The notes: generated by a model not told the origin, from the letters alone. 64,000 nt of DNA from Candidatus Parcubacteria bacterium (GCA_026395595.1 JAPLYL010000003.1:76136-140135), one strand, 5' to 3'; positions 3,397 to 21,603 are shown, numbered from the stretch's first letter. Numbers and translations are program-made.

Positions 3397-5073
3397 ATGG
3401 CAACAAAGAAAAAAACAGCGGTCAAGCGAAGAAAATATATTTTTGTAGTCGGTGGCGTGATGTCGGGAGTGGGGAAAGGCATTACGGCATCGTCCATCGG
3501 CGTCATTTTGCAAGACCGCGGTTTTAAGGTAACTTCCATAAAAATTGATCCGTATGTGAACGTTGATGCGGGTACCATGAACCCGACAGAACACGGAGAA
3601 GTGTTCGTTTTGAACGACGGTTTTGAAACTGACCAAGATATGGGAAACTATGAACGGTTTTTGAATGTCTCCATTCCTTCCGATAACTACATGACGACCG
3701 GACGCGTATACCTTTCTGTCATAGAAAAAGAACGAAACTTAAAATATAAAGGCAAATGCGTGCAGGTTGTTCCCCACATTCCTCTTGAAGTTATTTCCCG
3801 CATTAAATTTGCCGCGGAAAAAGCCGATGCGGATATTGCCATTATTGAAGTCGGAGGTACTGTCGGCGAATACGAGAACATTCTCTTTGTGGAAGCCGCC
3901 CGTATGATGGAATTGCAAAACCCAGATGATGTTTCCTGCGTGATGGTTTCGTATCTCCCCGTCCCTTCAAAGCTCGGAGAAATGAAAACGAAACCGACCC
4001 AGCATGCTGTCCGCGCGCTCAATTCAAACGGCGTTCAACCGAATGTCATTATTGCTCGTTCCAGTGAACCGCTTGACCAGGTGAGGAAAGAAAAGATTGC
4101 GCTCTTCTGCAATATGCGTCCGGAAAATGTCATTTCCGCGCCCGATGTGGAAAGCATTTATGACGTGCCGATAAACTTTGAGAAAGATAAATTATCAGAC
4201 AAACTTCTCTCTTCTTTGAAACTGAAAGCGAAGAAAGATTCTTCTTTGAAAGAATGGAGAAAATTCGTCGCGACAACCAAGAATACCAAAAAAGAAGTGA
4301 ACATTGCCGTGGTGGGAAAGTACTTCAGTACGGGGGATTTTGTTTTGTCTGATGCGTACATTTCCGTCATTGAAGCGATAAAATATGCAGCGTACGTGAA
4401 TGGAGCGAAGCCGATTTTGACATGGCTTTCGTCGGAAGAATTTGAAGGCGATGCGGCAAAAACCAATCTCCGCACCCTCTCAAATTATGACGGTATTTTG
4501 GTACCGGGAGGTTTTGGTTCTCGCGGAATAGAAGGGAAGCTCTCCGTTATTAAATACGCGCGCGAACATAAAATTCCGTATTTCGGTTTATGTTACGGTA
4601 TGCAGCTTTTGGTTATAGAATTTGCGCGGAATGTTCTTGGGTTTGATGTGGCTAATACGGCGGAAATAGATCCGAATTCTCCGCATTTGGTCATTGATAT
4701 TATGCCCGATCAGAAAAAGAAAATGAAAGAAGAAAATTACGGCGGAAGCATGAGGCTCGGCGCCTATCCTGCTATTTTGAAAAAGGGAACCGTTGCCGGA
4801 AAAGCATACGGCGAAAAAAAAGAAATTTCCGAAAGACATCGTCATCGCTATGAAGTGAATCCAGAATACGTTGAACGATTGGAAAAAGGCGGACTTGTTT
4901 TTTCCGCCACTTCTCCTGACGGCGTGTTGATGGAAATAGCCGAGCTTCCCGAAAGCAAACACCCATTTTTCCTCGGCACCCAATTCCACCCCGAACTTAT
5001 CGCCCGTCCGCTTGATCCACATCCTTTGTTCGTGGAATTTGTGCGGGTCGCTTTGTTTCAGAGTAAAAAATAA
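3397..5073 (+). CDS. pyrG: CTP synthase.
   Basis: The N-terminal synthetase motif GGVMSGVGKGITASS is present. The C-terminal class I glutamine amidotransferase has a GLCYGMQ cysteine and a HPE histidine-glutamate pair. Confidence 0.95.
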   Translation: MATKKKTAVKRRKYIFVVGGVMSGVGKGITASSIGVILQDRGFKVTSIKIDPYVNVDAGTMNPTEHGEVFVLNDGFETDQDMGNYERFLNVSIPSDNYMTTGRVYLSVIEKERNLKYKGKCVQVVPHIPLEVISRIKFAAEKADADIAIIEVGGTVGEYENILFVEAARMMELQNPDDVSCVMVSYLPVPSKLGEMKTKPTQHAVRALNSNGVQPNVIIARSSEPLDQVRKEKIALFCNMRPENVISAPDVESIYDVPINFEKDKLSDKLLSSLKLKAKKDSSLKEWRKFVATTKNTKKEVNIAVVGKYFSTGDFVLSDAYISVIEAIKYAAYVNGAKPILTWLSSEEFEGDAAKTNLRTLSNYDGILVPGGFGSRGIEGKLSVIKYAREHKIPYFGLCYGMQLLVIEFARNVLGFDVANTAEIDPNSPHLVIDIMPDQKKKMKEENYGGSMRLGAYPAILKKGTVAGKAYGEKKEISERHRHRYEVNPEYVERLEKGGLVFSATSPDGVLMEIAELPESKHPFFLGTQFHPELIARPLDPHPLFVEFVRVALFQSKK

Positions 5074-5085
5074 TATATTTTAACC

Positions 5086-6189
5086 ATGAATCCAAGAGAA
5101 CAATTTTCGGTGCAAAGAAATGAAAGCGACCCTCAATCAGAGAGGTATGACGACATGGAATTTTATCGGGAATACCAAGATCCGGGGAAAATTCTTGATG
5201 CGGTTGCTCGGCTTCAAATAATCAAAAATCTTCGGGTCGCAGGAAACAATGAGAATCCGCTTCGGCCTCTTCTGGAATATCGCGAATCACACCCGTCTCC
5301 TCATGGAGTAACTATGGGGATTGAAGTAGAATTACCGGAGGAGTCAGTGCTTGGCGAAGAAACAGAAGGAATGAATCGCGGGCAAAAGAAAAAATATCTT
5401 TTTGAACTGAAAGAACAATATCGGGAAACGGAAAAAATCGGCGTCCCCCGCGGAGAAGATCAGTTCTGGGAATTCGCACAACTGCCCGCTCATAACCCTG
5501 AAACGCTCGCGCGAGAAGTGCAGGCTCTTGTCGGCATGGGGCTCATCAACCCCGATTACGAAAAATTCCCGCTTCATGTAACTATCGGCGGAATTTCATT
5601 TTCCTCTAAAAACGATGACGGAGCGAATGTACTCGCGAGAGCTCTGGAAGCCACCGGTTGGGCGACGACCGGCGAGAGACTCATGGCTCCTTATACCGAT
5701 CCTGATTCAAATTGGACTTCCCACGATTTACCTTCCGGCATTCGCGAAAGAGGAAAGAATCGGCTGGCTCAACCGAAGACGGGAGAGACCACAACGGCCG
5801 TTGAGCTTCGCACTCCCGTTCTTCGCAGTCTTTTTGGACTAGATAGGTACCTTCACAGCGCTTATTATCTTTCCTCGGCCCTCCGCGCTTATCAGGAACA
5901 AAAGAAAGGCGACTGGATAGGAAAACAGCTCTCCAAGATTTGGCGGGTGTTTGCAGGAAAATGCGAGGCTCGTTTTGAGGAGGAGGGGATAACAAGTCCG
6001 TCGGAACTTTGGACGCTCAATACCGAGAATCCAAATGAAAATTCACCCTTCAAACAGCTGGCAAAGGTGCTGGATAAAGCCGAGGCGGATCCCGAAGGGA
6101 AGGAAGCGACATTCGTCCACGATATCCGCCATCTGATCATTTCCACCCGGGCCGAGGTCAAAGAAATCCTTGAAATGGACAGAAAATAA
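5086..6189 (+). CDS. Hypothetical protein of 367 aa with noticeably higher GC than its neighbours.
   Basis: The ORF is long and uninterrupted and starts 13 nt after pyrG. No family was recognised with confidence. The motifs GVTMGIEVELP and PLHVTIGG faintly resemble carboxylate-amine ligase or amidoligase signatures. Confidence 0.55.
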   Translation: MNPREQFSVQRNESDPQSERYDDMEFYREYQDPGKILDAVARLQIIKNLRVAGNNENPLRPLLEYRESHPSPHGVTMGIEVELPEESVLGEETEGMNRGQKKKYLFELKEQYRETEKIGVPRGEDQFWEFAQLPAHNPETLAREVQALVGMGLINPDYEKFPLHVTIGGISFSSKNDDGANVLARALEATGWATTGERLMAPYTDPDSNWTSHDLPSGIRERGKNRLAQPKTGETTTAVELRTPVLRSLFGLDRYLHSAYYLSSALRAYQEQKKGDWIGKQLSKIWRVFAGKCEARFEEEGITSPSELWTLNTENPNENSPFKQLAKVLDKAEADPEGKEATFVHDIRHLIISTRAEVKEILEMDRK

Positions 6190-6223
6190 TGGGTTTGGGG
6201 AAACCCTTGCGGAAAAATAAGAT

Positions 6224-6499
6224 TTGTGGTATTGTTGGGTTATGAAAGGGAAAAGGAACATAAATGCTGAATTTAACGAGACTTTTACGACTATTTCTGT
6301 CTTCATGGAGTACTACAACAAGAACATCCCCGTAAGTTATCCCCATGCGACCAGAGGGTCCTTAGAAGCGTTCCGGAAGGCGTATCCGGGTCTTTTTGCT
6401 GATGGAAAAAAGTGGTCTATAGACAAACATCGCAAACGCCTCATGGACTGGCTCCCGTCCTACGACTTTAGCAAGGAAGTACCCTCAGAAGTTGAATAA
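6224..6499 (+). CDS. Small hypothetical protein. An alternative start is the internal Met of MEYYNKN... at about 6305.
   Basis: The ORF is followed directly by a strong intrinsic terminator. No homology was recognised. Confidence 0.3.
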   Translation: MWYCWVMKGKRNINAEFNETFTTISVFMEYYNKNIPVSYPHATRGSLEAFRKAYPGLFADGKKWSIDKHRKRLMDWLPSYDFSKEVPSEVE

Positions 6500-6503
6500 A
6501 ACC

Positions 6504-6531
6504 AAAAAATGCCCCAATCGGGGCATTTTTC
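6504..6531. terminator. Intrinsic terminator.
   Basis: The sequence aaaaaatgccccaatcggggcatttttc forms a GC hairpin followed by a T-run. Confidence 0.7.
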
Positions 6532-6538
6532 ATATTGC

Positions 6539-6591
6539 AAGGTCTTCCCTTAAGGAGGAGTGAAGTGACGGGGAAAGGGGAGACCTTGGGG
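6539..6591. repeat. Conserved hairpin element, copy 1 of 2 (the other is at 43180-43241). It has an 11-bp stem, aaggtcttccc pairing with ggggagacctt, and the loop contains a perfect SD sequence taaggagga.
   Basis: The 50-nt core is near-identical to the 43180 copy. The stem was checked base by base. It sits between convergent genes, so no downstream CDS could use the SD. Confidence 0.5.
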
Positions 6592-6610
6592 CTATTTCAC
6601 TCTGTTCCTT

Positions 6611-8062
6611 CTAAAACTTACTCCAGAGCATCTGGTTGGTAATCTCATGGTGATAGATTACCTCGCTTTTTTTAATGATGGCTCCGAGACCTTTCGGACT
6701 TCGGTCTGCCGTTTCTTGTTTGTAAGAAACAAACTTTTCGTGAGGTCTTTCTCCCAGCGTTTTTTTGAGGAATTCGCTTCCTTTGAAGAGCTTGATGGCA
6801 TCATTGATATTTCCGGGCAAGTAGCGGAGGCGGTCGCGTTTACTTTCATCTTTCAAAAGAGGTTCTCCTTCCATCGCCGTTTTGAGAATGGCATAGACGG
6901 CGATGTACGGGTTGGCGTCAGGAGCAACAGAGCGGATTTCAATGCGGGCGGATTTTTCATTTCCCGCCGGAATGCGTATCATGGAACTGCGGTCAATGGA
7001 AGAAACTTTGATTTGGTTCGGGGCTTCAAAGTGAGGGTCCAGTCGGCGATACGCATTGACGCTCGCATTCAAAAGAAGAGAAAGTTCCGGAGCATGATTG
7101 AGAAGTCGTGAAATGGAATCCCATGCAAGAGGAGATAACCCATCGTCTCCGTCTTTTCTGTAAAAGACATTCTTTCCTCCCTTCATAAAAGAGAGGTTGA
7201 TGTGCATTCCCGATCCGTTTATATTCGCCACCGGTTTCGGAAGAAAGGTCGCGGTCATTCCTTGGTTCGTCGCAATCTGCCGGCAAACCAATTTGTAAAG
7301 CTGAATTCTGTCGCATGCTTTAACGGCATCGGCGTAAGAGAAGGCAAGTTCAAACTGAGATGGCGCGACTTCGGGGTGATCTTTTTCGTTTTTGAATCCC
7401 ATCGCTCTTTGTGCTTCCGCGGCGGCATCAATAAAAATTTTCAAACGGTCTAGCGGGAGGGAGTGAAAATATCCGCCGGTTGAGATAAGTTTGAAACCTT
7501 CTTCCTCTTGAAAATTCTGTTCCGCATTTACTCCGTCAACAAGAAAACCTTCCACTTCCGCTGCTATGTAGGCGGTAAGACCTTGTTTCTTTTTCAGTTC
7601 TTGACTGAAGGACATGAGTTGCCCTCTGAAGTCTGAATCGTAGGGGGTTTTATCGCGATTCAAAACATTGGCAAAAAAGATAACTTTTCCGGGCCCGAAA
7701 ACATCGGAAGGAAGCCAGAGAATACTTGACCAATCCACCTCCATGCGGAGGTCGGACTCTTTCTGTACGGAAAAACCGCGGATGGATGAACCGTCAAAGG
7801 TAAGGTTATCGGCAGAATCTAAAAAGTAGTGCTTGTCATAATCAAGCATGTGAAATCGTCCTTCAATATCGGAGAAACAAAGCGTAACCGCTTTTATGCG
7901 TTTTTCTTTGGCAAGATAGTCGCGATATTCTTTTTCAAGAATCGCAGAACTTTCCGTTCCGGCTCTTTCAGAAGCTTTGAGATTCATCTCTTCCAAGAGG
8001 TCGTAAGGGATTTCCAAGAAGTTTTTAAGCCCTACGGGGCTAGAAATAGGTTCTTTTGCCAT
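6611..8062 (-). CDS. glnA: Glutamine synthetase family protein.
   Basis: It is 483 aa and has the GS beta-grasp motif FDGSSIRGF, a catalytic-domain layout, and an NxxxE-rich C-terminal half typical of GS. Confidence 0.75.
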   Translation of the reverse strand: MAKEPISSPVGLKNFLEIPYDLLEEMNLKASERAGTESSAILEKEYRDYLAKEKRIKAVTLCFSDIEGRFHMLDYDKHYFLDSADNLTFDGSSIRGFSVQKESDLRMEVDWSSILWLPSDVFGPGKVIFFANVLNRDKTPYDSDFRGQLMSFSQELKKKQGLTAYIAAEVEGFLVDGVNAEQNFQEEEGFKLISTGGYFHSLPLDRLKIFIDAAAEAQRAMGFKNEKDHPEVAPSQFELAFSYADAVKACDRIQLYKLVCRQIATNQGMTATFLPKPVANINGSGMHINLSFMKGGKNVFYRKDGDDGLSPLAWDSISRLLNHAPELSLLLNASVNAYRRLDPHFEAPNQIKVSSIDRSSMIRIPAGNEKSARIEIRSVAPDANPYIAVYAILKTAMEGEPLLKDESKRDRLRYLPGNINDAIKLFKGSEFLKKTLGERPHEKFVSYKQETADRSPKGLGAIIKKSEVIYHHEITNQMLWSKF

Positions 8063-8270: not shown

Positions 8271-8516
8271 ATGGAGAACAAGAACCGTAAAAATTGCGAA
8301 AGCTGTCTTTTCCCCCTTTCCAAAGATCCCGGAGTAAGCGGGTCGGAAAAATACTGCAGTTATTGTTTCAAAGATGGAAAACTCGTTTACGAAGGCTCTG
8401 ACCTGAAAGAGTTTCAGAATCGTTCGTATCAAGAAATGATCAAGAAAGGAATGAATAAGTATCAGGCAAAATTTTTCACATGGATGATGCACTTTGCTCC
8501 CCGTTGGAAAAAGTAG
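8271..8516 (+). CDS. Small zinc-ribbon protein with two CxxC pairs (CESC...CSYC).
   Basis: It is 81 aa. The two cysteine pairs are spaced like a zinc-ribbon domain. Confidence 0.55.
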   Translation: MENKNRKNCESCLFPLSKDPGVSGSEKYCSYCFKDGKLVYEGSDLKEFQNRSYQEMIKKGMNKYQAKFFTWMMHFAPRWKK

Positions 8517-8561: not shown

Positions 8562-8635
8562 TGCGGGATCATCTAATGGTAGGATGCGACTCTCTGAAAG
8601 TCGTCATCTTGGTTCGAATCCAAGTCCCGCAGCCA
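8562..8635 (+). tRNA. tRNA-Gln with anticodon CUG.
   Basis: The fold was built by hand. The acceptor TGCGGGA pairs with TCCCGCA. The D-arm is ATCT/GGAT with loop AATGGTA. The anticodon stem is CGACT/AGTCG with loop CTCTGAA. The T-arm is CTTGG-TTCGAAT-CCAAG. Discriminator G and CCA are encoded. Confidence 0.85.
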
Positions 8636-8659: not shown

Positions 8660-9616
8660 ATGAATAAAAATAAAAACAGACATGTTGCCATTAAATTTCT
8701 TGAAACGGCAAGAAAAGCAACTTTTGAAGATTGCACCATAAATGGGGGCATTGATTTAGCAGGTTCTGGACATAAGTTTATTCATACCTCAATAAATGTC
8801 TTTAAACAAGAACACCCTTTTTGGTTTTGGTTTGCTTCTGCTGGAACTCTTATAGGTCTCCTTACTTCACTCATGTTCTTAGCACAATTTTTTGGATATC
8901 TTCCTCTTTCCCTGAAAGATAATATCGTGGCTCTTTCAGGGCCGGGAGCTGAAAAGCAACAAGGAATGGCACTGGTCGCTTCTCCTCTCCAATTAAAATC
9001 TGGTTACATATCGGAAAAAACAAATAAATACGATATAAGTATTAAAGTTCCTATTTTTAACAATTCAAAAATAGACGATATTGTCCGCTCAGCTATTGAT
9101 GAAAAAATTGAAAAAATAAAATATAATCACTCCCTTGATAAAGATGAGTATATACAAAAATTAACCCTATACGGTGATTATGAAACTCCTTATGTTTCGG
9201 ATAGTATAATTAGCATAAAGTTTAATTTAGGTCAAAGTTATATATTTTCGGATGGCGGGTCTTCAATGGGTAATCTTAATTTGGCGTATGGGATAAACAT
9301 TGATACAAAGAATAACAAAGTTATCACCTTGTCTGATGAATTAAAATCTTTCGGTATAAATATTCGCCAGTTATCTGAAAGAATTAAAGAAAAACTATTT
9401 GAAAAGTATAAAATACGTGATTTACACTCAGACACAGGTTTAGATCCTTTTGGTTCAAATTATTCTGAATTCGTAATCTCAGACGAAAGAGTAACTTTTC
9501 TCTTTCAGGGGTTTCAAATAGATTCTTTAGGAAAATGTATGCCAGAAATTTCATTTACGACAGATGGTGGATTTTTAGACATTACTGATGCTACAAATTG
9601 GTGTTCGGGCAATTAA
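8660..9616 (+). CDS. Hypothetical membrane-anchored protein. Its start was re-assigned to the ATG after an AGAGGAG Shine-Dalgarno sequence, because the track ORF from 8561 overlaps the tRNA.
   Basis: There is an RBS agaggag followed by ATG. One TM helix is present (FWFWFASAGTLIGLLTSLMFLAQFF). No homology was recognised. Confidence 0.5.
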   Translation: MNKNKNRHVAIKFLETARKATFEDCTINGGIDLAGSGHKFIHTSINVFKQEHPFWFWFASAGTLIGLLTSLMFLAQFFGYLPLSLKDNIVALSGPGAEKQQGMALVASPLQLKSGYISEKTNKYDISIKVPIFNNSKIDDIVRSAIDEKIEKIKYNHSLDKDEYIQKLTLYGDYETPYVSDSIISIKFNLGQSYIFSDGGSSMGNLNLAYGINIDTKNNKVITLSDELKSFGINIRQLSERIKEKLFEKYKIRDLHSDTGLDPFGSNYSEFVISDERVTFLFQGFQIDSLGKCMPEISFTTDGGFLDITDATNWCSGN

Positions 9617-9693: not shown

Positions 9694-10737
9694 ATGAGAG
9701 TATATTTAGATACCCGTGGCAGATTCACAATTGGCATTCCGGACCATTGGATTTGTCGAGAAGAAGATACCGCTAATGGAAATCCCGTTACGTTTGATTT
9801 AGGCGATAAATCAGATGATTATTTTCAGATAAGTTGTTTTTCCACGAACCAAGGTATCGTCTCAAAAGTAGGGCATCATTATGTGGAGAATAAGTATTCG
9901 GATTCCCCAATAGTTTTTTTGAGACGAGTCATTCATATAGCAGATATGGTAACGACGGTCTTTGAGGCAAAGGTGGAGGGTCATTTTATATTAGTCACTC
10001 ATATCACATCAAAAAAGCAGATCCATTCTAAAACCACTAAAAAACACCTCCATCAAATTGAGCGGACACTGGAAAAGCTTCGTGTCGTTAATCCGTCAAG
10101 TTGGGCGTACGTTTCGACACACGCAAAATATAATAGATTCATGGTTTCTTTACTTGCGGCTATCGATTTGACAAACAAGGCACAGGAAAACGGATCATCA
10201 ATCGAATTGGTTATTCTTTATGCAAATCAGATTGATGCACACCTTCGTTTGGCACTGATACTACAAGAGCAGTTACAAAATTCTACGGATAATATTGACG
10301 CCACCCTCATTTTTCAAGGAAAGACGGATAAGCCGATATTTGAAAAAGAAATATATGAACGCGCTTTAAATCAAGGGGTGATTGAAAAATCTTTATACGA
10401 AAGGCTAAAAAATTTGTATGAATTGAGAAACGGAGTAGTGCATAGGTACATTATCTCAGACCTGAAAACAAACGACATTGTAAAACTTGTTGTCGATTAT
10501 ATGGATATTCATGAAATACTTGGAAAAAAGCTTTCAGCGCTTGAACAAGAACAATTTGAGAAAAATATTGGTATTTATGGTGGCGGAAATAATCCTACAA
10601 ATCCAATTGAAATTACTCAGATGAGGGGGCTGTTGACAGAATTGAAAGAAAAGCACAATAATGCACAAATTATAAAAGAAATGACAATTAAGGTAGAGGC
10701 GAATAATTCGCGGTCTAGTAAACCTAATGAGAAATAA
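9694..10737 (+). CDS. Hypothetical protein whose C-terminal region has an Rx4H motif (ELRNGVVHRY) consistent with a HEPN-type fold.
   Basis: It is a 347-aa intact ORF. The RNxxxH motif sits in a helical context. The HEPN assignment is inference from motif only. Confidence 0.5.
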   Translation: MRVYLDTRGRFTIGIPDHWICREEDTANGNPVTFDLGDKSDDYFQISCFSTNQGIVSKVGHHYVENKYSDSPIVFLRRVIHIADMVTTVFEAKVEGHFILVTHITSKKQIHSKTTKKHLHQIERTLEKLRVVNPSSWAYVSTHAKYNRFMVSLLAAIDLTNKAQENGSSIELVILYANQIDAHLRLALILQEQLQNSTDNIDATLIFQGKTDKPIFEKEIYERALNQGVIEKSLYERLKNLYELRNGVVHRYIISDLKTNDIVKLVVDYMDIHEILGKKLSALEQEQFEKNIGIYGGGNNPTNPIEITQMRGLLTELKEKHNNAQIIKEMTIKVEANNSRSSKPNEK

Positions 10738-10760
10738 AGCGTGTCATATTTGTCGCTTTT

Positions 10761-11567
10761 ATGAATCCACAAAATAAATCGTTAAAAGAAGAATTTCTAA
10801 AGCTTAAAAATGAAGTTGAGCCTTATATTCAGAATGGTCGAGTAAAAGACAAGAGCCATTTACAAAGCTACTTATACTTTGCTTACTACCCACTATTTAG
10901 TTTCGTAGAGTCAATATTAATTCTTTGTGAGAGTGGAAAATTCCGTAGTGCCGAATCACTCTTACGGTCGCTTATCGAGCTGCATATAAACGTCATTTAC
11001 TACCAAGTAGCTGACTCTGATCGCAGGCTTGCTATTTCCGTGAAAAAAGATCTTGAGGAGAAAATAACCGGGATTAGAGGAATTAGAGAGCTAATACGAA
11101 AATATCCTAATCTGAAATCCGACAACCCTAAAGACTTATTCAGTAATGAATGGCTAAAGGAAGCTGAAGACTGGGCAGAAGAACGACGACAAGCTATTTT
11201 GCGGGGAAATCACCTAATCAAGGCCGATAATGATTTGAGTTTAAAGGATAAGGCAATTAAGTGTGACCAGGCGAAAATGAAAGATATTGAAGCTGGGCAC
11301 TTTGAGCGAATGTATCATATGATTTACCGTCAGCTCTCACCATCGACGCACTTAAACATTGGTGGCATACAAGGTTTTGTTGATCAGAAAGAAGGGGGTA
11401 ATTATTTATTTAGTGATGGAGGTCAAAAAGATTACTACTTAATGCAAGAAGCTATTGCAATTTGTGTGGCCTTAACCAAGGATCTTTATGAAAATGGAGT
11501 GATTGTTGCAAAACTTCCAGATACTATTGGTCGCCTTGAAAAACTTCTAACTCGGAATTTGAGATAG
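10761..11567 (+). CDS. Hypothetical protein of 268 aa.
   Basis: It is an intact ORF 23 nt downstream of the previous gene and probably co-transcribed. It has an Rx6H-like segment (RQLSPSTH). No family was recognised. Confidence 0.5.
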   Translation: MNPQNKSLKEEFLKLKNEVEPYIQNGRVKDKSHLQSYLYFAYYPLFSFVESILILCESGKFRSAESLLRSLIELHINVIYYQVADSDRRLAISVKKDLEEKITGIRGIRELIRKYPNLKSDNPKDLFSNEWLKEAEDWAEERRQAILRGNHLIKADNDLSLKDKAIKCDQAKMKDIEAGHFERMYHMIYRQLSPSTHLNIGGIQGFVDQKEGGNYLFSDGGQKDYYLMQEAIAICVALTKDLYENGVIVAKLPDTIGRLEKLLTRNLR

Positions 11568-11649
11568 TCACGATTCTTTTTAATATCTCTTAATTTTCGG
11601 AATCGGGATTAGTCCCTAATCTTTGTGAAAGTATTGGTTAATTTCAACT

Positions 11650-12252
11650 ATGAACAAAAAACAAACAACAATCCTCGAAACTTTTAAAACAAACGTAGAT
11701 ATTGATACACTTCGTTGTGATGCTGATAAAATTGTCATTTCGCATGATACTTCTTATTTTATTTCATATCCGGAATTTATTAAATATTTCAGCGACATAA
11801 AACAGATTTCAAAACACAATGTTATTATCGGTATAAATTTTACCTACGGTTGGATGCCGACGATTTTCAATTTTCGGTCGAAAGATTTTGATAATGTGGT
11901 ATTAATTCTGAATAATGCTAAGAAGGGTATAGTTCCGCAAGTCCACGAGTTAGAGACGTTAAAAAAATGTTTTAATAATTCTCTTGTTGGGACATCAAAA
12001 CTTTTACATTTTATAAATCCCGAAATATTTGCAATCTGGGACAGCCGAGTGTATCGGTATTTAACAAATCATAGAGCTTATAATTATCACCTTAATAATT
12101 ATGAATCATATTTAGCTTATTTAGAATTTTGTAAATATATAACAAATCAGCCCGGTTTCGATTATATTCATAATTCTATCATTAAAAAAATGGGGAATGA
12201 AATAACAAAATATCGAACCGCAGAACTCGTTATGTTTTTATCTGTACAATAA
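11650..12252 (+). CDS. Hypothetical protein of 200 aa.
   Basis: It is an intact ORF with an AT-rich codon usage like the neighbouring island genes. Confidence 0.45.
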   Translation: MNKKQTTILETFKTNVDIDTLRCDADKIVISHDTSYFISYPEFIKYFSDIKQISKHNVIIGINFTYGWMPTIFNFRSKDFDNVVLILNNAKKGIVPQVHELETLKKCFNNSLVGTSKLLHFINPEIFAIWDSRVYRYLTNHRAYNYHLNNYESYLAYLEFCKYITNQPGFDYIHNSIIKKMGNEITKYRTAELVMFLSVQ

Positions 12253-12264
12253 GTATTTAAAAAT

Positions 12265-12447
12265 ATGAAAACACCTGAAACTTGTTTGTCCTGTAACAAA
12301 CTTTATTTAAAAAACCAGAATGATGTAGGAAAATTATGTTCAGAATGTGTATTGGATGAATCAATGCATGAATACCTGCAAGCATTGAGAAAGATTGAGC
12401 GCCGTTTGACTTTTGTTGAATGGTTGTTTGTTTTAGCAAAAGGTTAA
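12265..12447 (+). CDS. Small zinc-ribbon protein (CLSC...CSEC).
   Basis: It is 60 aa with two CxxC pairs. It starts 12 nt after the previous gene. Confidence 0.4.
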   Translation: MKTPETCLSCNKLYLKNQNDVGKLCSECVLDESMHEYLQALRKIERRLTFVEWLFVLAKG

Positions 12448-12504
12448 TTTTATGTGAAAAATTCGGGGCACGATTCTTTTTAAAACTTATGATATAATCA
12501 ATAA

Positions 12505-13257
12505 ATGGAAAAAATAAAAAAGCGACTTCCCGGACAATCTCTCGATGAAAAACTTCAAGATTTTGTTGATGAAAAACTTATTTTTTATCTTTTTTATATC
12601 ACTGTAATTGTGATTGTTATTATTGGAGAATGGGTCCGTTTCTTTTGGAAATTTGAACCGCACCCGGTGGTAATTTCGATTGTTGGTTTAATTGTAGTAA
12701 TTTATCTTGTAAACCAAATTTTTAATAATCTAAAGGATGTCAAAAAGTTAAAAAAGGGGAGAGACGGAGAAAGAGAAGTCGGTCAGTATCTTGAGGAAAT
12801 GCGGTCGACGGGTGCACTCATTTTTCACGATATCCTTGGGCCGAATTTCAATATAGATCATGTCATTGTGTCACCGCATGGAATTTTTACTGTAGAGACG
12901 AAAACCTGGAGTAAGCGAGCCAAAAATGAGTCAATAAAGTTTGATGGAAAACATTTAATCGTAAATGGATATTCTCCAGACAGAGATCCTCTTGCTCAAT
13001 CGCTCGCTCAATCTCAATGGTTGAAAAATCTCTTGAAAGAAAGTACTGGAAAAGAATTTATTGTGAACCCTGTAATCGTTTTCAATGGGTGGTTTGTAGA
13101 GTCAGAAACAACTCGTCAGGTTAAAGAATATGGAGTCTTAGTTTTAAATCCAAAAGCCTTGCCGTCATTTGTGAATAATAATTTTACTAACATGAGTAAT
13201 GAAGATTTGCATTTAATCGCCTATCATCTCGCTCGCCATATACAATCACCAATTTAA
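12505..13257 (+). CDS. NERD (nuclease-related domain) protein with an N-terminal double TM anchor.
   Basis: The NERD signature is GRDGEREVGQYL ... FHDI ... IDHVIVSPHGIFTVETKTW. Two N-terminal hydrophobic helices are present. Confidence 0.65.
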   Translation: MEKIKKRLPGQSLDEKLQDFVDEKLIFYLFYITVIVIVIIGEWVRFFWKFEPHPVVISIVGLIVVIYLVNQIFNNLKDVKKLKKGRDGEREVGQYLEEMRSTGALIFHDILGPNFNIDHVIVSPHGIFTVETKTWSKRAKNESIKFDGKHLIVNGYSPDRDPLAQSLAQSQWLKNLLKESTGKEFIVNPVIVFNGWFVESETTRQVKEYGVLVLNPKALPSFVNNNFTNMSNEDLHLIAYHLARHIQSPI

Positions 13258-13342
13258 CGGATTCATGAATTAAAGCTGCCCCCATTCCTTGCTAGCACGA
13301 GAACAATTTTAGAATAATATTTCTCGGTAGTATTTTAAATAT

Positions 13343-13993
13343 ATGAAATTATCTCTTCAAAAAACATTATTTTCTATTGCCTCAGAGATGCAGGTAAAAG
13401 GCGACCCTTCGCATGATTTTTCTCATGTTGAGAGAGTTTTACACTTGGCAGTAGATATTGCAAAAACAGTGAATGCTGATTTAGATATTGTTATTCCAGC
13501 CGCTTTATTTCACGATATTATTGTGTATAAAAAAGACAGCAAGGAAAGTAAAAATGAAGCGAACGAAAGTGCTGATGTTGCAGAAAAAGTACTACGAAGT
13601 ATGTCGGAATATCCAAACAAAAAGGTAGAGTCAGTAAAGACCTGTATAACTCAATGTTCCTTTTCAAAAGGCATCACGCCAACCCTCTTGGAAGCAAAGG
13701 TACTTCAAGATGCCGACCGATTGGAAGCGACAGGTGCTATTTCTATCATGCGAACATTTGCCTCTTGTGGTCAGATGGGGAGACCTTTTTACTCAAAAGA
13801 TGACCCGTTGTGCAAAAAAGAAGCGATACCTTTTCGTTCCGGTATTGATTTGTTCTATAACAGACTTCTTATCGTTGAGAGTATGATGCATACGAAATAT
13901 ACCAAAAAAATAGCAAGACAAAGAACAAAATTTCTTAAACAATTTCTTGCTCAGTTTGAAAAGGAATTGAAGGAATCGGGAATCATTGAATAA
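13343..13993 (+). CDS. HD-domain phosphohydrolase.
   Basis: The H...HD...D metal-binding pattern is present (FSHVERV, LFHDI, QDADRLEATG). Confidence 0.65.
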   Translation: MKLSLQKTLFSIASEMQVKGDPSHDFSHVERVLHLAVDIAKTVNADLDIVIPAALFHDIIVYKKDSKESKNEANESADVAEKVLRSMSEYPNKKVESVKTCITQCSFSKGITPTLLEAKVLQDADRLEATGAISIMRTFASCGQMGRPFYSKDDPLCKKEAIPFRSGIDLFYNRLLIVESMMHTKYTKKIARQRTKFLKQFLAQFEKELKESGIIE

Positions 13994-14015
13994 TATTATT
14001 CTAAACAAAAATAGC

Positions 14016-14120
14016 CGCCCGAGAGCCGTCGATGTGATATTCTTAAATTAAGTAAATCCGCCTTGCAGGGCTTGGTTTCGCACGGTTCCAGTCCGGGGAC
14101 GACAGCCAAATCGTGCTATG
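14016..14120. repeat. Island repeat family C, copy 1. It starts 23 nt after the HD gene stop.
   Basis: Conserved blocks are shared with copies at 16062-16165, 16950-16975 (partial) and 18272-18397. They are CGAGAGCCGTCG, GGCTTGGTTTCGCA, a T-arm-like GGTTCCAGTCC, and CGACAGC. Confidence 0.6.
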
Positions 14121-14189
14121 TTATTTCGCTCGAGATGCATCGATAAATAGAAAATAACATCAAAATGTCGTAGGTGATAAAATTCATAA

Positions 14190-16052
14190 ATGGGAAACGA
14201 ATCAAGCAAAACCTCTATTGAAGATTTGTTCGTCTCTCCAAAAGACGCGTCTTTTTATAACTATGTGCTGGTCTTGGTTCGACCCAAGGGTGTATCCCGA
14301 TTTGCCGACCCACTTTGGGTGGCATATAGCCAATTTCTCAGATCAGAAAAGTTCAAGCTTACGGAGGATTTACTGATTGAAACGCTTTCTCTCGTTTTTA
14401 ACCTTAGTGAACACAAAGCAAATAGGGAGTATCACCCATTTCCTTTTGGTAAGTCGCTTAGTGAAGGCAAGAGAGTCACTGTTGCCCTCCTCAAAAAGAA
14501 TGGGCAAGAGACGCTCGCGCAGGTAATTGAGGAGAACTTCCCTGAAGAAGCTACCTACGGACTAGAAGCATCAGCACCACTTTCAGACTTCCTGCAAGAG
14601 CTTACGAATCGTTATTTTCAGGCACGACTGGATTTCAATAAGACACCTGGAAGGCTTCTATATAAAATGCCTCATTTTGAGGTTTTCGAGGTGTTGAAGG
14701 ATGACACTTACGGTTTGTACGGATTCAATATGTACTTCTCTAACGGTTCACATGCTAACTACGAACGTACAGGAGAACGCACAACGGGAATCAATGTCCT
14801 TACTGACTATCCAATAAACTACAATGTCGGTCTAATAGATGACCTAAAACGAGAATGGAAAGTAGGAACCCAACGTGCCTATGAGGTAGGAATATCAGGA
14901 AGATACAACGATTGGGGAGAGTGGATGCCGCTTGTATATCCAGGCGACAACCACCAGATGTTTCTAACTGAAAGTGAACGAATAGCTGGAGACGATCATC
15001 AGGTTGCGGGAATACTCTTCTATATCATGTGTACTGGTCACCGAATCATAGAATTCGCTGTCAAAACCCCCATTGAACTTCCAAACAAGTATTTCTCGCT
15101 TGGAAGCAGAATGCACATGTATAAATGCGAACCACTCGACCAGACCAGCCATAGTGCGAGGGACTTTCATATTTATGACGGCCACTACGAACTTGATGAC
15201 TTAGACCCTAAGACCATAAGAAACGCAATTGCTTCAATCAATGTTGGCTTAAATCGAATGGCCTTTTCCTACGACTCTAGTGTTGATTGGTGCATCAAGT
15301 ATTCAATCTATAAAGAAGGAGGTCATTCAAAACCAACTCCCACCAATGAACAATTGGATGTGCTTAATTCGATGTTAGTAGACTTTCCAGACACAGAGGA
15401 TGCCATTGTATTGGATATCTGTATTGACTGGTTTCACCGTGGAGAACTTGCCCGACGTAAGAATGTATTTCTTGCTTTCCTGTCCTATTACATCGCATTA
15501 GAGAGTGTCGCAACAGCTATTGCTGATGGCGATGCTGACTTAGGTTTGGGATACGTCAAGGAAACAAAGGCCGAACGCAAAACCCGAGTTGTTTCTGAGA
15601 TACAGAAACTCCATGACGAACTCTATAATTCAGACCCACAGAAGTTTATTGAACGAGCCTATTTTGAACAGGTTGTCGGCTTAAAGGCCAAGACTCGAAA
15701 GGTCATGGAGTTGGTATTTGGTACTGACCATGCGTATGTAAAAACTTTATTTGAAAAAGTAGACGGCAAGGAATCTATATATGACTTACGAGGAGAACTT
15801 GCTCATGGGGGCATCACATTACTAGACTCTAGTCATCAAAAGAGGATTCGGGAACGACTTCCTGAACTCGCGGAGATAGTGAGGGAGTTTGTTAGGAAAA
15901 TAATTGTGAAGCCTGGTCAGGAACTTCCGCGATGGACAGGTGGAAGCACGTTCTCTGTGTTTCCAAGCGATCCAAGAGACATGATGATTTCCTCGGATAT
16001 GAGAATGTATGAAAGGCTCGACTGGAAAATTAAGCCAGAATGGTTCGATTAA
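14190..16052 (+). CDS. Hypothetical protein of 620 aa from a higher-GC (about 45%) foreign block. The N-terminus is MGNESSK.
   Basis: It is a long intact ORF whose composition differs from the flanking AT-rich genes. No family was recognised. Confidence 0.6.
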   Translation: MGNESSKTSIEDLFVSPKDASFYNYVLVLVRPKGVSRFADPLWVAYSQFLRSEKFKLTEDLLIETLSLVFNLSEHKANREYHPFPFGKSLSEGKRVTVALLKKNGQETLAQVIEENFPEEATYGLEASAPLSDFLQELTNRYFQARLDFNKTPGRLLYKMPHFEVFEVLKDDTYGLYGFNMYFSNGSHANYERTGERTTGINVLTDYPINYNVGLIDDLKREWKVGTQRAYEVGISGRYNDWGEWMPLVYPGDNHQMFLTESERIAGDDHQVAGILFYIMCTGHRIIEFAVKTPIELPNKYFSLGSRMHMYKCEPLDQTSHSARDFHIYDGHYELDDLDPKTIRNAIASINVGLNRMAFSYDSSVDWCIKYSIYKEGGHSKPTPTNEQLDVLNSMLVDFPDTEDAIVLDICIDWFHRGELARRKNVFLAFLSYYIALESVATAIADGDADLGLGYVKETKAERKTRVVSEIQKLHDELYNSDPQKFIERAYFEQVVGLKAKTRKVMELVFGTDHAYVKTLFEKVDGKESIYDLRGELAHGGITLLDSSHQKRIRERLPELAEIVREFVRKIIVKPGQELPRWTGGSTFSVFPSDPRDMMISSDMRMYERLDWKIKPEWFD

Positions 16053-16208: not shown

Positions 16209-16944
16209 ATGGAAAACTATTCCGAATTTTCAGACTCCCGTTTGGTAGGGATTTATGACACATTAAACCCCTTTTCTGCGGATACTAAATTTTATATAGA
16301 ACTTGCAACCAGCCTCAATAATTGTTGATATCGGTTGTGGTACCGGATTGCTTGCCTCTGAATTAGCCAAACGGGGTCACAAAGTAATTGGCGTCGAACC
16401 TGAAAAGACAATGCTTGAAGTTGCACGCAATCGACCTAATGGTGAACTTGTTCATTGGATTGAAGGCGATGCAACAAAAGTTGGGCAAACAAACGCCGAC
16501 CTTGCGATTATGACCGGTCATGTGGCTCAAGTATTTCTTGATGATAAAAAATGGAGAGAAACATTAAAGGCTATATACAAATCATTACGTGCATGTGGTA
16601 CTATTGCTTTTGAAAGTCGCAACCCGGTTGTTAAACCATGGGCTTCGTGGGTACCTGAAACATCTCGTCGAGAAAAGGTTGACCCAGTGTTTGGTAAGGT
16701 TGTTGTTTGGAGTCAGTTGCGAGAACTCAAAGATAATCGAGCACGATATGAAATGCATTACCATTTTGAAAAAACAGGAGAAGACCTTGTGTCAGTAAAT
16801 GAGATTATATTCCGTTCACAAAATGAGATAACCAAATCATTAATCGATGTAGGTTTTTCAGTACAAAGTATTTATGGCAGTTGGGACAGGGGTCTCGTCA
16901 ATGAAAAAAGTTCTGAATTGATTTTTGTTGCAGTACGGAACTAA
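16209..16944 (+). pseudogene. Class I SAM-dependent methyltransferase broken by a frameshift around 16300-16325.
   Basis: Frame 0 (16209-16328) encodes MENYSEFSDSRLVGIYDTLNPFSADTKFYIELA, a typical MTase N-terminus. Frame +1 from 16303 continues with motif I VDIGCGTG and the rest of the fold. The codons were checked by hand. Confidence 0.55.
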
Positions 16945-17298: not shown

Positions 17299-18249
17299 GT
17301 GAAGATATCCAACATGGTACGACGCGCAATCGTTTATTATTTGAATAAATTTTTTATATCTATGGACAAGGTACTTATTCGGATCCACGAAAATATGGAG
17401 TCGGTAAAAAGAATGTCTCAAGATGAAAATCCAATGGAATTCTGGTCGGCTCGCGATTTGATGCCGCTATTGGGTTATTCCACTTGGCGTCAGTTTTCTG
17501 AGTCCATTGAACGGGCAAAAAACGCATGTAAAACAAGTGATCAGGTTGTTGATAGCCACTTTTTGCCGGCGCCGGCAAAAAGTCATGGAGGTCGTCCACA
17601 AGAAGATTATTATCTCACTCGCTATGCCTGTTATCTTATTGCTCAAAACGGCGACCCGCGTAAACCAGAGATTGCACTCGCTCAAACATATTTTGCAACA
17701 CAGACGAGAAAACAAGAACTTTTAGAAAAAAGAGAATACGAAGATAAACGTTTGGAATCGCGCGCAAAACTCAAAGATACGGAAAAGAAAATTGAGGGGA
17801 CGGTCTATCAGAGGGGTATCCGACTTCCTGTTGAGTTTGCAACTTTTAAAAATAAACACATTGAAGCACTCTATGGCGAAATCACCGCCGGCGAATTGAA
17901 ACGAATCCGAAAAATTCCGGGAGGTCAGTCGCTTGCCGATTTTGACAGTAATGTGGAGTTGAAGGCAAAAGATTTTGCACTCGCTATGACCGACCACAAC
18001 ATAAAAGAGAAAAATATTTTCGGAAAAGAAGCGATGAATGCCGAGGTTGTTAAAAACAGCAAAGAAACCCGACAAGCATTGCTTAATCGCGGAATCAAGC
18101 CTGAACTAATAAAACCGGAAGAAGATTTGAAAGTCATAGCAATAAGACGAAAAAAAGAGGAGAACCAAATAAAACCTCAAGCAAAACCAAAACTCATTGA
18201 GGGGAAGAAGAAAAATAGTAATGGGGACAGCCACCACCATTCTTTTTAA
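17299..18249 (+). CDS. dinD: DNA-damage-inducible protein D (DinD family). The real start may be the Met at 17362 or 17395.
   Basis: MEFWSARDLMPLLGY ... IERAKNACKTSDQVVDSHF matches E. coli DinD (EFWSARDLAPLLEY ... IEKAKTACENSGQ ... DHF). An extended -10 element tgGTATTAT lies at about 17252. Confidence 0.6.
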   Translation: MKISNMVRRAIVYYLNKFFISMDKVLIRIHENMESVKRMSQDENPMEFWSARDLMPLLGYSTWRQFSESIERAKNACKTSDQVVDSHFLPAPAKSHGGRPQEDYYLTRYACYLIAQNGDPRKPEIALAQTYFATQTRKQELLEKREYEDKRLESRAKLKDTEKKIEGTVYQRGIRLPVEFATFKNKHIEALYGEITAGELKRIRKIPGGQSLADFDSNVELKAKDFALAMTDHNIKEKNIFGKEAMNAEVVKNSKETRQALLNRGIKPELIKPEEDLKVIAIRRKKEENQIKPQAKPKLIEGKKKNSNGDSHHHSF

Positions 18250-18271
18250 AAACCGCACATTAATTTTACCT

Positions 18272-18397
18272 CGCCCAAGAGCCGTCGTTGTGGTAATCTG
18301 ATATTAAGCCCTTCGGCTCGTTTTGCTCGCTCAGGATAAACAAATCCGCCTTGCAAGGCTTGGTTTCGCATGGTTCTGGTCCGAGGGCGACAGCGAG
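18272..18397. repeat. Island repeat family C, copy 3. It starts 23 nt after the dinD stop and has a 33-nt insertion relative to copy 1.
   Basis: It is near-identical to copy 1 outside the insertion. Confidence 0.6.
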
Positions 18398-18429
18398 CTT
18401 GAGATAAGTTCGGAGTCCGAGAAGCATTA

Positions 18430-18992
18430 AATCAACCACCCCGCCCCGAAGGGGACGGGGTATGAACAGAACATGGGTGTCAATTCCACAGCGTGGGCTG
18501 CGTGGTAATTCCCATCGTCTTTCCTTGGTTCTCGACATACTGCTTTACGGTATTCCAATTCCCCCGTTCGCTTACAGTGGCAAGGTAATATCCATCGCTC
18601 CAAAATTCACCTCCCCAAAGTTTTTTCCGCAATTCAGGAAATCGCTTGAACAATTCCCGAGCAGTTATACTCTTAAACATTCCTACGATTTGTGAACCCT
18701 TATATTTTGGATGAAAAGAACAGAGTATATGAATATGATTACCATCGGTGCCTACTTTCTCAAACTCAATTTCGTACCTCTCTTCTATTTCCTTAGCGAT
18801 TTCCAGAATTGCTCCTTTTATTTCCTCACTAAGTAATGACTTCCGATACTTTACCGGAAAGACGATATGGTAGTGCGTATCATATACGCAGTGATTGCTT
18901 CGAGTGACACCCATGTTGCTATTATATCAGAAAACCGAGGGTTTTCAGACTTTCCTACACGGTTCCCGCCCCAAGGGGCGGGGTAAGGGCTT
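18430..18992 (-). mobile_element. IS200/IS605-family insertion sequence with minimal tnpA only. It has subterminal hairpins at both ends.
   Basis: tnpA has the HuH motif YDTHYHIVF and a YYLATV catalytic tyrosine region. The hairpins ccccgcccc-gaa-ggggacgggg (18438-18461) and cccgcccc-aa-ggggcggg (18965-18982) flank the gene. Confidence 0.75.
18480..18914 (-). CDS. tnpA: IS200/IS605 family transposase TnpA (Y1 HuH).
   Basis: The 144-aa protein MGVTRSNHCVYDTHYHIVFPVKYRKSLL... is a textbook IS200 TnpA. Confidence 0.85.
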   Translation of the reverse strand: MGVTRSNHCVYDTHYHIVFPVKYRKSLLSEEIKGAILEIAKEIEERYEIEFEKVGTDGNHIHILCSFHPKYKGSQIVGMFKSITARELFKRFPELRKKLWGGEFWSDGYYLATVSERGNWNTVKQYVENQGKTMGITTQPTLWN

Positions 18993-19688: not shown

Positions 19689-20162
19689 ATGGAATTTAAT
19701 GCTGTAGATAAATATCGCAGTATGTTGCGTTCATACGATAGATTAAAAAAGATAGAAATTGACAACGGAAACACTATTAGTAATTCTGAATCCAGAGATG
19801 CTGTCGAAGATTTTTTTAATCAATGTTATCACTTAAAAGATTGGATAAAGAAAGATAAAGGGATAAATCTTCCTCTGAACATCGAAGACTATATTAACAA
19901 AAGTCATTTTTTGTCTCTTTCCGCAGATTACTGCAACACTTTTAAACATGCTGGCTTAGATTATAATAGGTCGGACAAAAAACTAGAAAAAATAAATACC
20001 CATATAAATTTTGATCTTACTCCGAGGGGTTTTGTTGCTTCATCAAGACTAGAGTTGACAATTAGTGGTGAAAAATATGATGCATTTGAACTGGCAACTA
20101 ATTGTCTAGAGGATTGGGAAAAATTTATTGTTTCAAATAATATAATATTTCCCAATCCTTAG
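19689..20162 (+). CDS. Hypothetical protein of 157 aa downstream of the ClpP-like gene.
   Basis: It is an intact ORF with no recognised family. Confidence 0.4.
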   Translation: MEFNAVDKYRSMLRSYDRLKKIEIDNGNTISNSESRDAVEDFFNQCYHLKDWIKKDKGINLPLNIEDYINKSHFLSLSADYCNTFKHAGLDYNRSDKKLEKINTHINFDLTPRGFVASSRLELTISGEKYDAFELATNCLEDWEKFIVSNNIIFPNP

Positions 20163-20217
20163 AGATAAGTATAATGGATAGATAATGATAAGGGGGTCTG
20201 ACCGCATTAGCTTTTTT

Positions 20218-20248
20218 CTTGCCTTTGTTTATTTTGTCGTGCTATAAT
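20218..20248 (+). promoter_or_regulatory. Promoter with an extended -10 (gTGcTATAAT) and a TTGCCT -35-like hexamer.
   Basis: The motifs were read directly at 20218-20223 and 20240-20248. It drives the structured RNA candidate downstream. Confidence 0.45.
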
Positions 20249-20254
20249 ATGCGT

Positions 20255-20415
20255 ACAATTGAATAAGTAAGTAGCCTAAACCGATAGTCGTATCGGCATG
20301 GTGAAAAAAAGTCCCGCAAAGACATAAAAAACCCATCATGTGGGGTGTCTTTGCGGGCCATATCGGGAAACCGGTATGAGGGGCTTCGGTCTCTACTCAC
20401 GTGGTGGGCTTTTTG
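20255..20415 (+). ncRNA. Candidate structured small RNA or cis-regulatory leader of about 160 nt. It has a pseudoknot, GAAA and UUCG tetraloop hairpins, and a terminator-like 3' end.
   Basis: Hairpin ccgatagtcgtatcgg is present. A 12-bp helix pairs gtcccgcaaagaca with tgtctttgcggg. A pseudoknot pairs cccaucaugug (inside that loop) with cacguggugggc, including G-U pairs. The GNRA hairpin cgg-gaaa-ccg and the UUCG hairpin gaggggc-uucg-gucuc are present. The RNA ends in a U-run. The G/C-rich reading frame 20340-20461 is not protein-like. Confidence 0.45.
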
Positions 20416-20461
20416 TGTCTCTGAATGCCTACCATAAAAATTATCAATGTATTTTTTATAG

Positions 20462-20756
20462 TATGGAAAATAAACCGATTATTTCACTCAAAGGTGAAGA
20501 TGGACGCGTTGAGCTTTTTGAAGACATGGTAAAGATACGAGAGAGGAGTATTCCCATTAGAGAAATTTTATCTTTAAAAATTAAAAGGCCGGGAAGCACG
20601 CCAGGTTTTTTACATTTTTCCTTAGAGGGTAATATCGCGTCACGCGAATGGACAATCGGGTGTATTCCGGATGAAAACACCCTGTGTTTTTTAGGAAAAG
20701 AAGAATATGATCAAGCGCTTGATTTTTTGAAATACTTTGAGATGCGAAATAAATAA
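20462..20756 (+). CDS. Small hypothetical protein, possibly a bacterial PH-like domain. Its start was re-assigned to the Met of MENKPIIS.
   Basis: The track ORF starts at 20340 inside the structured RNA. The protein-like sequence begins at 20462. No firm homology was found. Confidence 0.4.
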
Positions 20757-20808
20757 TCTTTCCGCTCGTCTTCTCTTACGGGGTCATTATTGATATAATC
20801 GTCTCATT

Positions 20809-21603
20809 ATGGAAACGATTAAAAACAATCTTCCGGAGAAAAAGCCTTTGGAACATCTTAAGGAAGGGGTGGCTCCCATTATGGCGTGTATTGGTACGCG
20901 AGATGACTTTGAAAAAGAGCCGACGCTCGGGCTGACCGACCGCTTGGGTTTTTGGGGAGAAAATAAACAGAATCTTTTTGTGGATTATTATGCGTACCCT
21001 TATGAAAATAATGCCAAGGGTATAAAAAACGCCGGAGAAAAAACCTACGCTATTTCAGAAATAAGCGACCTCAATAAATTTTCTTTAAAGTATAAAAATT
21101 GTACGGGGGTTATTGTCTCGGGGCAAGACAAAACGAATGGGAAAAATATCTCCTTCTTCACTCATCAGGATTCCATGAAGGTGCTTCCTGAAGGCGAAGT
21201 AAGAAGACAATTTCTTGCCGATCTCAAATGGCGTTTGAAAGAAATGGAAAGCCGGTGTATTCCAGGAACGATAGATGCGGTAATCTTCGGGGGAAATTAC
21301 TTGAATTCTGACGTGGAAGAAAAGAAAGATCCGAATCATAAATTTGGTCCTCGGACTGAATTTGAAAAAAACTATAAGGATTCTATTCACTTGCTTTCTG
21401 AACAAATTTCCGATGTTCTCGGTTTTCAGCCGACCATTATTGCCGGCCCAAAAACGACAATGGGTAGTGATGATGCCATTTATGACAATGAACACAGAAG
21501 GCTTTATCTTCGCCGTCCGGAAATAGGAGAGACTTCTTCTGAAAGTTTTAAGCCCGAAGCAGTAGAAGGAAGAGAAGAACAGTGGAAAAAGGAATGGAAA
21601 TAA
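20809..21603 (+). CDS. Hypothetical protein of 264 aa.
   Basis: It is an intact ORF with no recognised family. Confidence 0.45.
   Translation: METIKNNLPEKKPLEHLKEGVAPIMACIGTRDDFEKEPTLGLTDRLGFWGENKQNLFVDYYAYPYENNAKGIKNAGEKTYAISEISDLNKFSLKYKNCTGVIVSGQDKTNGKNISFFTHQDSMKVLPEGEVRRQFLADLKWRLKEMESRCIPGTIDAVIFGGNYLNSDVEEKKDPNHKFGPRTEFEKNYKDSIHLLSEQISDVLGFQPTIIAGPKTTMGSDDAIYDNEHRRLYLRRPEIGETSSESFKPEAVEGREEQWKKEWK

Follow-up and report, generated by a model that had tools for sequence, protein, structure and literature searches.

A low-G+C block at about 8.64–14.0 kb in a 64,000-nt stretch of DNA from a metagenome-assembled genome of a Candidatus Parcubacteria bacterium (the window; positions count from its first letter) contains six genes on one strand (9694–13993), the first of which encodes a 347-aa protein with a predicted HEPN domain. 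This block, which lies beside a tRNA-Gln gene, appears likely to be an accessory island composed of independent single-gene units that share a strand, with the 347-aa protein as a solitary, antitoxin-less HEPN protein of the HepT-like type. Homologues of these genes were never found together, and the block thus looks more like a mosaic of unrelated accessory genes than a new multi-gene defense system. In this reading, the genes for a 268-aa DUF5677 protein, a 200-aa protein from a large unannotated family, a zinc-ribbon-like mini-protein, a NERD-domain protein, and an HD-domain protein are separate cargo, each found elsewhere in different company. By analogy, the most likely working unit would be the 347-aa protein alone.

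The 347-aa protein (9694–10737, + strand) consists of an N-terminal domain matching no known family (residues 1–145) and a predicted HepT-like HEPN domain (residues 146–300). Its sequence, at 100% identity and coverage, occurs in a Candidatus Parcubacteria metagenome-assembled genome, where a 181-kb contig also encodes the exact 268- and 200-aa proteins. The HEPN domain includes the peptide ELRNGVVHRY (residues 243–252), in which RX4HXY (residues 245–252; nt 10426–10449) corresponds to the published signature of HepT toxins, whose tyrosine is polyadenylylated by MntA (PMC7641770). A set of 14 homologues with identity down to 27% shows no variation at R245, N246, H250, R251, or Y252. Among 80 distinct relatives (median identity 32%), conservation is 100% for R245, N246, and H250 and 99% for Y252, although motif conservation in this larger set is partly by construction, since the metagenome scan relied on two peptide patterns and RN[KRG]V[VI]HRYI was one of them. 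The 14-sequence set is independent of that motif-based scan, and the motif is still invariant there. Within the N-terminal domain, P16, W19, F34, F44, Q45, and S47 are conserved across the family. The Rx4H HEPN motif noticed in a preliminary description of this DNA is therefore real.

Profile searches point in the same direction, albeit with scores below the curated cut-offs. The 347-aa protein matches Pfam HepT-like (PF01934) with 20.7 bits over its full length and 21.7 bits over its C-terminal half (cut-off 23.5), as well as NCBIfam HepT_toxin (NF047751) with 24.4 bits (cut-off 60). When the 14 members were scanned singly, 9 matched HepT-like (best E 1e-4) and 2 matched RiboL-PSP-HEPN, all of them under curated cut-offs, and no non-HEPN Pfam family was matched by any of the 14. 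A profile constructed from the 14 homologues retrieved only Shewanella HepT structures (5yep) from the PDB, weakly (E 0.06), with LRNkvvHRY aligned on LRNIAVHDY. These sequence features make a convincing case that the protein is a HEPN-superfamily member of the HepT subtype carrying an extra N-terminal domain, and the family it represents is a new, unannotated one within a well-known HEPN kind. Its members, of which there are at least 192, are distributed patchily across phyla, including Parcubacteria and Pseudomonas, and the neighboring genes of some loci suggest that these belong to Bacteroidota.

In comparison with HepT from the type VII HepT/MntA system (Shewanella oneidensis SO_3166, PDB 5YEP), the 347-aa protein has the same RX4HXY motif (LRNGVVHRY here, LRNIAVHDY there) and keeps the tyrosine that MntA polyadenylylates in HepT (PMC7641770). 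HepT-like is its best match in both Pfam and NCBIfam, yet below both cut-offs. In contrast to HepT, which is ~130–140 aa long, it carries a conserved N-terminal domain of ~145 residues. As had been noted before, an MNT antitoxin partner is lacking: MntA (MNT nucleotidyltransferase, GSX10DXD) does not adjoin the gene in the window, where the neighbors are a 318-aa open reading frame (ORF) and the DUF5677 gene, nor does it recur among the relatives, and no nucleotidyltransferase is present among the families listed for the 148 nearest neighbors of 347-aa homologues. The sub-cut-off scores, the more than twofold greater size, and the missing MntA neighbor place the protein outside the type VII toxin-antitoxin family. 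Solitary multi-domain HEPN proteins of the abortive-infection (Abi) kind, namely AbiD/F, AbiJ, AbiU2, AbiV, and HEPN_LA2681-type proteins, are reportedly covered in the HEPN superfamily survey of Anantharaman et al. 2013. Like such proteins, the 347-aa protein is encoded by a lone gene, joins HEPN to an unrelated domain, and occurs sporadically in variable, defense-rich neighborhoods. However, none of their Pfam models matches the 347-aa protein, whose HEPN domain is of the HepT subtype.

Gene context was compared across three sets of loci, centered on the 347-aa family (87 loci; 7 from exact look-up and 80 from the metagenome scan), the 200-aa family (42 loci), and close DUF5677 relatives (5 loci). 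ORFs were called in all loci and searched with profiles of the 347-aa, 268-aa, and 200-aa families as well as the other window proteins, but none of the three sets contained any further gene of the window. Clustering of the neighbors within 4 kb of 347-aa homologues yielded only redundant contigs and a single serine-recombinase cluster (four loci). The immediate same-strand genes, considered as candidate conserved partners, were not homologous to one another either upstream (38 loci) or downstream (39 loci) in an all-against-all phmmer comparison, barring redundant contigs, and homologues of the 318-aa ORF were not found adjoining 347-aa relatives in this comparison. The 148 nearest neighbors match 102 Pfam families, with no family in more than two of them. 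They include defense genes (GajB, BrxC/DUF6079, two DRT reverse transcriptases, PDC-S05, HEPN_LA2681, Gp49, and RhuM), mobile-element genes (resolvases and integrases), and metabolism genes (FTHFS, RNase PH, glycosyl hydrolases, and a peptidase); HamA with a helicase, KwaB, Gp49/HTH, PIN, RHS, and a resolvase occur near the homologues in the exact look-up loci. Carriage by plasmids was rejected, as tblastn gave two weak matches for the 200-aa protein and none for either the 347-aa or the 268-aa protein, and so was carriage by phages, since 2.9 million viral contigs yielded 2, 0, and 2 loci.

The second gene of the run (10761–11567, + strand) encodes an all-alpha 268-aa protein that matches Pfam DUF5677 (PF18928) with 56.7 bits (gathering threshold 27.1), as do 26/26 of its close homologues. 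The preliminary description had regarded it as the second member of a HEPN pair on account of the peptide YRQLSPSTH, which contains R190-x6-H197, and in the close DUF5677 subfamily R69, H75, R190, and H197 are all invariant. Across the broader family, however, the picture is different. When 1.84 billion representative proteins were scanned in full with HMMER, 123 relatives were identified. In an alignment of 73 full-length relatives, with identity down to 17%, position 190 is Arg in only 33 of these 73 (45%), and position 75, from the R69-x5-H75 pair, is His in 10, so that DUF5677 is a family without a conserved Rx4–6H motif. Foldseek of the AlphaFold model (pLDDT 88.2) gave no significant match in either PDB or BFVD, and hhalign profile-profile comparison with the 347-aa family returned a probability below 1%. 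On these grounds the second-HEPN assignment was rejected: the motif Arg and His are invariant in the 347-aa family, but the pairing of two HEPN proteins is not supported. A sequence-profile search of the PDB with the DUF5677 and 200-aa families produced spurious matches only (CAMP factor, coronavirus PLpro), with no significant stretch.

What is conserved among the 73 DUF5677 relatives is a different set of largely polar residues, comprising R69 (99%), E73 (97%), N77 (81%), D169 (92%), E182 (84%), Y185 (99%), Y189 (93%), S193 (88%), and H197 (99%); this constellation suggests an enzyme of unspecified type. DUF5677 has been found enriched beside serine recombinases, and the one DUF5677 ORF assayed in that work falls outside the five that it describes as protective (preprint, PMC12632615). 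The enrichment fits the present loci, in which one close relative (in L131, region 3887–6822) directly follows a large serine recombinase gene and another (L135) has a serine recombinase within 6 kb. Overall, the close relatives adjoin a serine recombinase, an OLD-type ATPase-Toprim protein, an NYN protein, or an uncharacterized protein. In L135 (4110–7495), the DUF5677 gene begins 14 nt after the OLD-family ATPase-Toprim gene and overlaps a gene for a 232-aa zinc-ribbon protein, in surroundings that are prophage-like (terminase, DNA methylases).

The 200-aa protein (11650–12252, + strand) belongs to a family of 1095 homologues that are 55–65% identical across candidate phyla radiation (CPR) bacteria, Bacteroidota, and other phyla, and Pfam, NCBIfam, PADLOC, and PHROGs all lack a model that matches the protein itself. 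Two motifs are invariant in the family, GWMPT and LVGxSKxLHF...IWD, the second of which reads LVGTSKLLHF...IWD in the window (nt 11983–12060) and includes the invariant K117 and D131, spaced by 14 residues. Foldseek of the AlphaFold model (pLDDT 88.2) against the PDB placed archaeal Ogg (3FHG, 3KNT), MutY, and EndoIII at the top, with non-significant scores (E 1.4–9, TM ≤0.35). Among 27 members, weak Pfam matches to OGG (PF21790; 3/27) and DUF6308 (6/27), all with E ≥0.05, fall on the invariant segment with its conserved G-x-x-K...D pattern. In contrast to the Lys-to-Asp spacing of 18–19 residues that is typical of the OGG/HhH-GPD superfamily, the spacing here is 14, and a PDB sequence-profile search with the family retrieved no glycosylase. 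A fold of the OGG/HhH-GPD type is possible for the modeled protein and is treated as a lead, not as a result. No constant neighbor of the 200-aa family was observed among its 42 loci, and the zinc-ribbon gene was rejected as a partner since a zinc-ribbon ORF follows in only 1 of 39 loci.

Three genes of the run remain. The 60-aa mini-protein (12265–12447, + strand) contains CxxC...CxxC on inspection of its sequence, with Pfam zinc-ribbon matches at chance level only. The 250-aa protein (12505–13257, + strand) matches NERD (PF08378) with 73.4 bits against a threshold of 22.1, covering profile positions 1–110 of 111, and begins with two hydrophobic, predicted membrane segments. The 216-aa protein (13343–13993, + strand) matches Pfam HD with 45.5 bits against a threshold of 22, PHROG 3921 with 77 bits, and NCBIfam PRK10119 with 142 bits, under the cut-off of 286. 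By these matches it is a predicted phosphohydrolase of the HD superfamily that is YedJ-like only, short of the equivalog level. Both domain assignments agree with the preliminary description, as do the ORF coordinates and lengths, the motifs, the common + strand, and the 23-nt spacing between the 347-aa and 268-aa genes; intergenic gaps along the run are 12–85 nt. Two further points of that description required revision. Only one of two reported zinc-ribbon mini-proteins lies within the interval, the other probably being an 81-aa Zn_ribbon_2 (PF12674) protein encoded just upstream of tRNA-Gln (8271–8516, + strand), outside both the interval and the low-G+C block. The run also does not follow tRNA-Gln directly, as a 318-aa ORF (8660–9616, + strand) lies between the tRNA gene and the 347-aa gene.

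The tRNA-Gln gene (CTG anticodon; 8562–8635, + strand), detected by ARAGORN and with an Rfam tRNA score of 56.6 bits, marks the left edge of the low-G+C stretch, and the 318-aa ORF is the first gene of the island; its product has a predicted N-terminal hydrophobic segment and Pfam matches to PdaC/DUF3298 below threshold only. G+C content is 0.32–0.36 across 8.6–14.0 kb and 0.42–0.46 in the flanks, which fits an acquired island. The tRNA gene was rejected as an integration site, there being no second copy of its 3′ end within the window, and no integrase was recognized among the ORFs scanned between 8.6 and 18.3 kb. The tRNA was the sole match in the Rfam scan, and promoter and terminator scans gave counts at chance level.

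The preliminary description had raised the possibility that HEPN, NERD, and HD proteins constitute one new arrangement, in which case the 347-aa, 268-aa, 200-aa, zinc-ribbon, NERD, and HD genes would form a single multi-gene abortive-infection or toxin system. Six genes on one strand with gaps of 12–85 nt, their low G+C content, the frequent use of HEPN, NERD, and HD domains in defense systems, and the lack of terminator-like sites between most of the genes (although the terminator scan is at chance level) all speak for such a system. Yet the supposed partners never recur in the loci of the 347-aa (87), 200-aa (42), and DUF5677 (5) families, the neighbors in these loci are mutually unrelated, and PADLOC-DB v2 has no match for the first four proteins (347, 268, 200, and 60 aa) and matches NERD and HD only at E ≥0.005. 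The absence of co-occurrence largely refutes the single system, which is now very improbable. The accompanying statement that the genes belong to no recognizable named system stands as regards PADLOC models for the first four proteins, but the 268-aa protein is a member of a named Pfam family. Likewise, a defense-island setting is borne out by the many relatives of the 347-aa protein that lie beside defense or mobile-element genes, but housekeeping neighbors occur as well. The latter are compatible with an altogether different view without any role in conflict, according to which the genes serve lineage-specific housekeeping or stress functions, with the HEPN protein processing RNA, the HD protein acting as a nucleotidase, the NERD protein as a repair nuclease, and a further protein resembling a DNA glycosylase. 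Homologues of the 347-aa protein in housekeeping settings (L007; FTHFS, RNase PH, and aminotransferase neighbors), the resemblance of the HD protein to YedJ phosphohydrolase, and the very widespread 200-aa family, with 55–65% identity across phyla and mostly housekeeping neighbors, favor this view. It is nevertheless unlikely, given that the 347-aa family is patchy across phyla, is never found in a conserved context, and is frequently encoded next to recombinase, integrase, toxin-antitoxin, and known defense genes, and that the low-G+C island and a nearby IS200-like transposase point to acquired DNA.

Several observations weigh against the reading of the island as independent single-gene units with a solitary HEPN protein. 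In addition to the partial circularity of the 80-sequence motif count and the housekeeping surroundings of some homologues (as in L007), many of the metagenomic loci are short: downstream sequence reaches at least 1 kb in 58 of the 87 loci of the 347-aa family and at least 3 kb in 36, so that the absence of partners is carried by about 36–58 informative loci. Furthermore, the DUF5677 gene lies only 23 nt from the 347-aa gene in the window, and a broad DUF5677 profile detected distant members of this superfamily within 4 kb of the 347-aa homologue in 5 of 78 non-redundant loci (L004, L060, L081, L085, and L128), at distances of 0.85–3.9 kb and with the R..E and Y..Y..S..H motifs kept. These two observations could be accommodated by a loose two-gene module of the 347-aa HEPN protein and the DUF5677 protein, for instance a toxin and its modulator or a second effector, with the other island genes unrelated to it. 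With the background taken as ≤1e-4 per gene, an assumed value, the co-localization has a Poisson p <1e-7, but direct comparison with control loci (0/42) is not significant (Fisher p = 0.12). Distance and orientation also vary, as two of the five DUF5677 genes are on the opposite strand and one lies upstream of the 347-aa homologue; approximately 93% of 347-aa loci are without DUF5677, and no 347-aa homologue occurs in the five loci collected for close DUF5677 relatives. The 5/78 pattern fits both families residing in one kind of variable island; common residence in defense or mobile islands accounts for the co-localization equally well, and a two-gene module is improbable.

With the 347-aa protein as the preferred working unit, HepT and other HEPN toxins offer an analogy from which a mechanism can be sketched. 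Pairing of two HEPN domains would bring together Arg and His in a metal-independent composite RNase site, and the activated protein would then cleave cellular or invader RNA, leading to growth arrest. As there is no linked MntA, the N-terminal domain of ~145 residues is the best candidate for a regulator or sensor, most likely one that is built in and restrains the RNase, while the retained Tyr252 may allow control through AMPylation in trans. A further-reaching proposal would make the 347-aa family a new single-gene class of defense or abortive-infection RNase, a HepT-type HEPN minus MntA that is run by its N-terminal sensor or by an unlinked AMPylating enzyme, with DUF5677 as a new enzyme family co-localizing in mobile defense islands; this broader proposal is tentative and, at present, rather doubtful.

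Beyond the interval, an imperfect direct repeat (14014–14122 and 18270–18410) flanks a block with genes for a 620-aa protein, a methyltransferase, and DinD. The repeat has a 74-nt core that is 80% identical and a near-exact 35-nt core present in two copies only in the window; it has no Rfam match, and the consensus fold of its two sequences is a stem and is uninformative. The second copy directly adjoins an IS200-like Y1 transposase gene (18480–18914, − strand; Pfam Y1_Tnp, 129 bits), and a GC-rich hairpin is located at about 18440–18462. The repeats could be the ends of an inserted cassette or could themselves be an IS200-associated element. Within the flanked block, the 620-aa protein (14190–16052, + strand) matches no Pfam or NCBIfam family, and searches of PDB, viral contigs, and plasmids retrieved no homologue; its Rx4H-type segment RGELAH (residues 534–539; nt 15789–15806) lies in a stretch with a weak match to the PADLOC DzbB C-terminus (E 0.029), and it could be another HEPN-like protein. 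The DinD/Bro-N protein (17299–18249, + strand) scores 266 bits for NCBIfam DNA damage-inducible protein D (cut-off 242) and 290 bits for PADLOC candidate system PDC-S13, and the adjoining SAM methyltransferase gene (16303–16944) has a partial mad2 match. Farther downstream, a gene for a PcfJ-like protein (22741–24228, − strand), whose family name implies a tie to conjugative elements, lies amid several family-less ORFs (19689–21603, 24219–25337), suggesting that the variable or mobile region may reach well past 18 kb.

This analysis illustrates that same-strand clustering of defense-flavored domains in a low-G+C island is no evidence of a system, and that a neighborhood test should precede naming. 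Two sizeable unannotated families, the 200-aa family with its more than 1000 members and DUF5677, merit structural and biochemical attention. Should the solitary 347-aa protein prove to be an active RNase, it would exemplify type VII toxin regulation without an adenylyltransferase partner, and it would add a defense candidate from the little-studied CPR bacteria.

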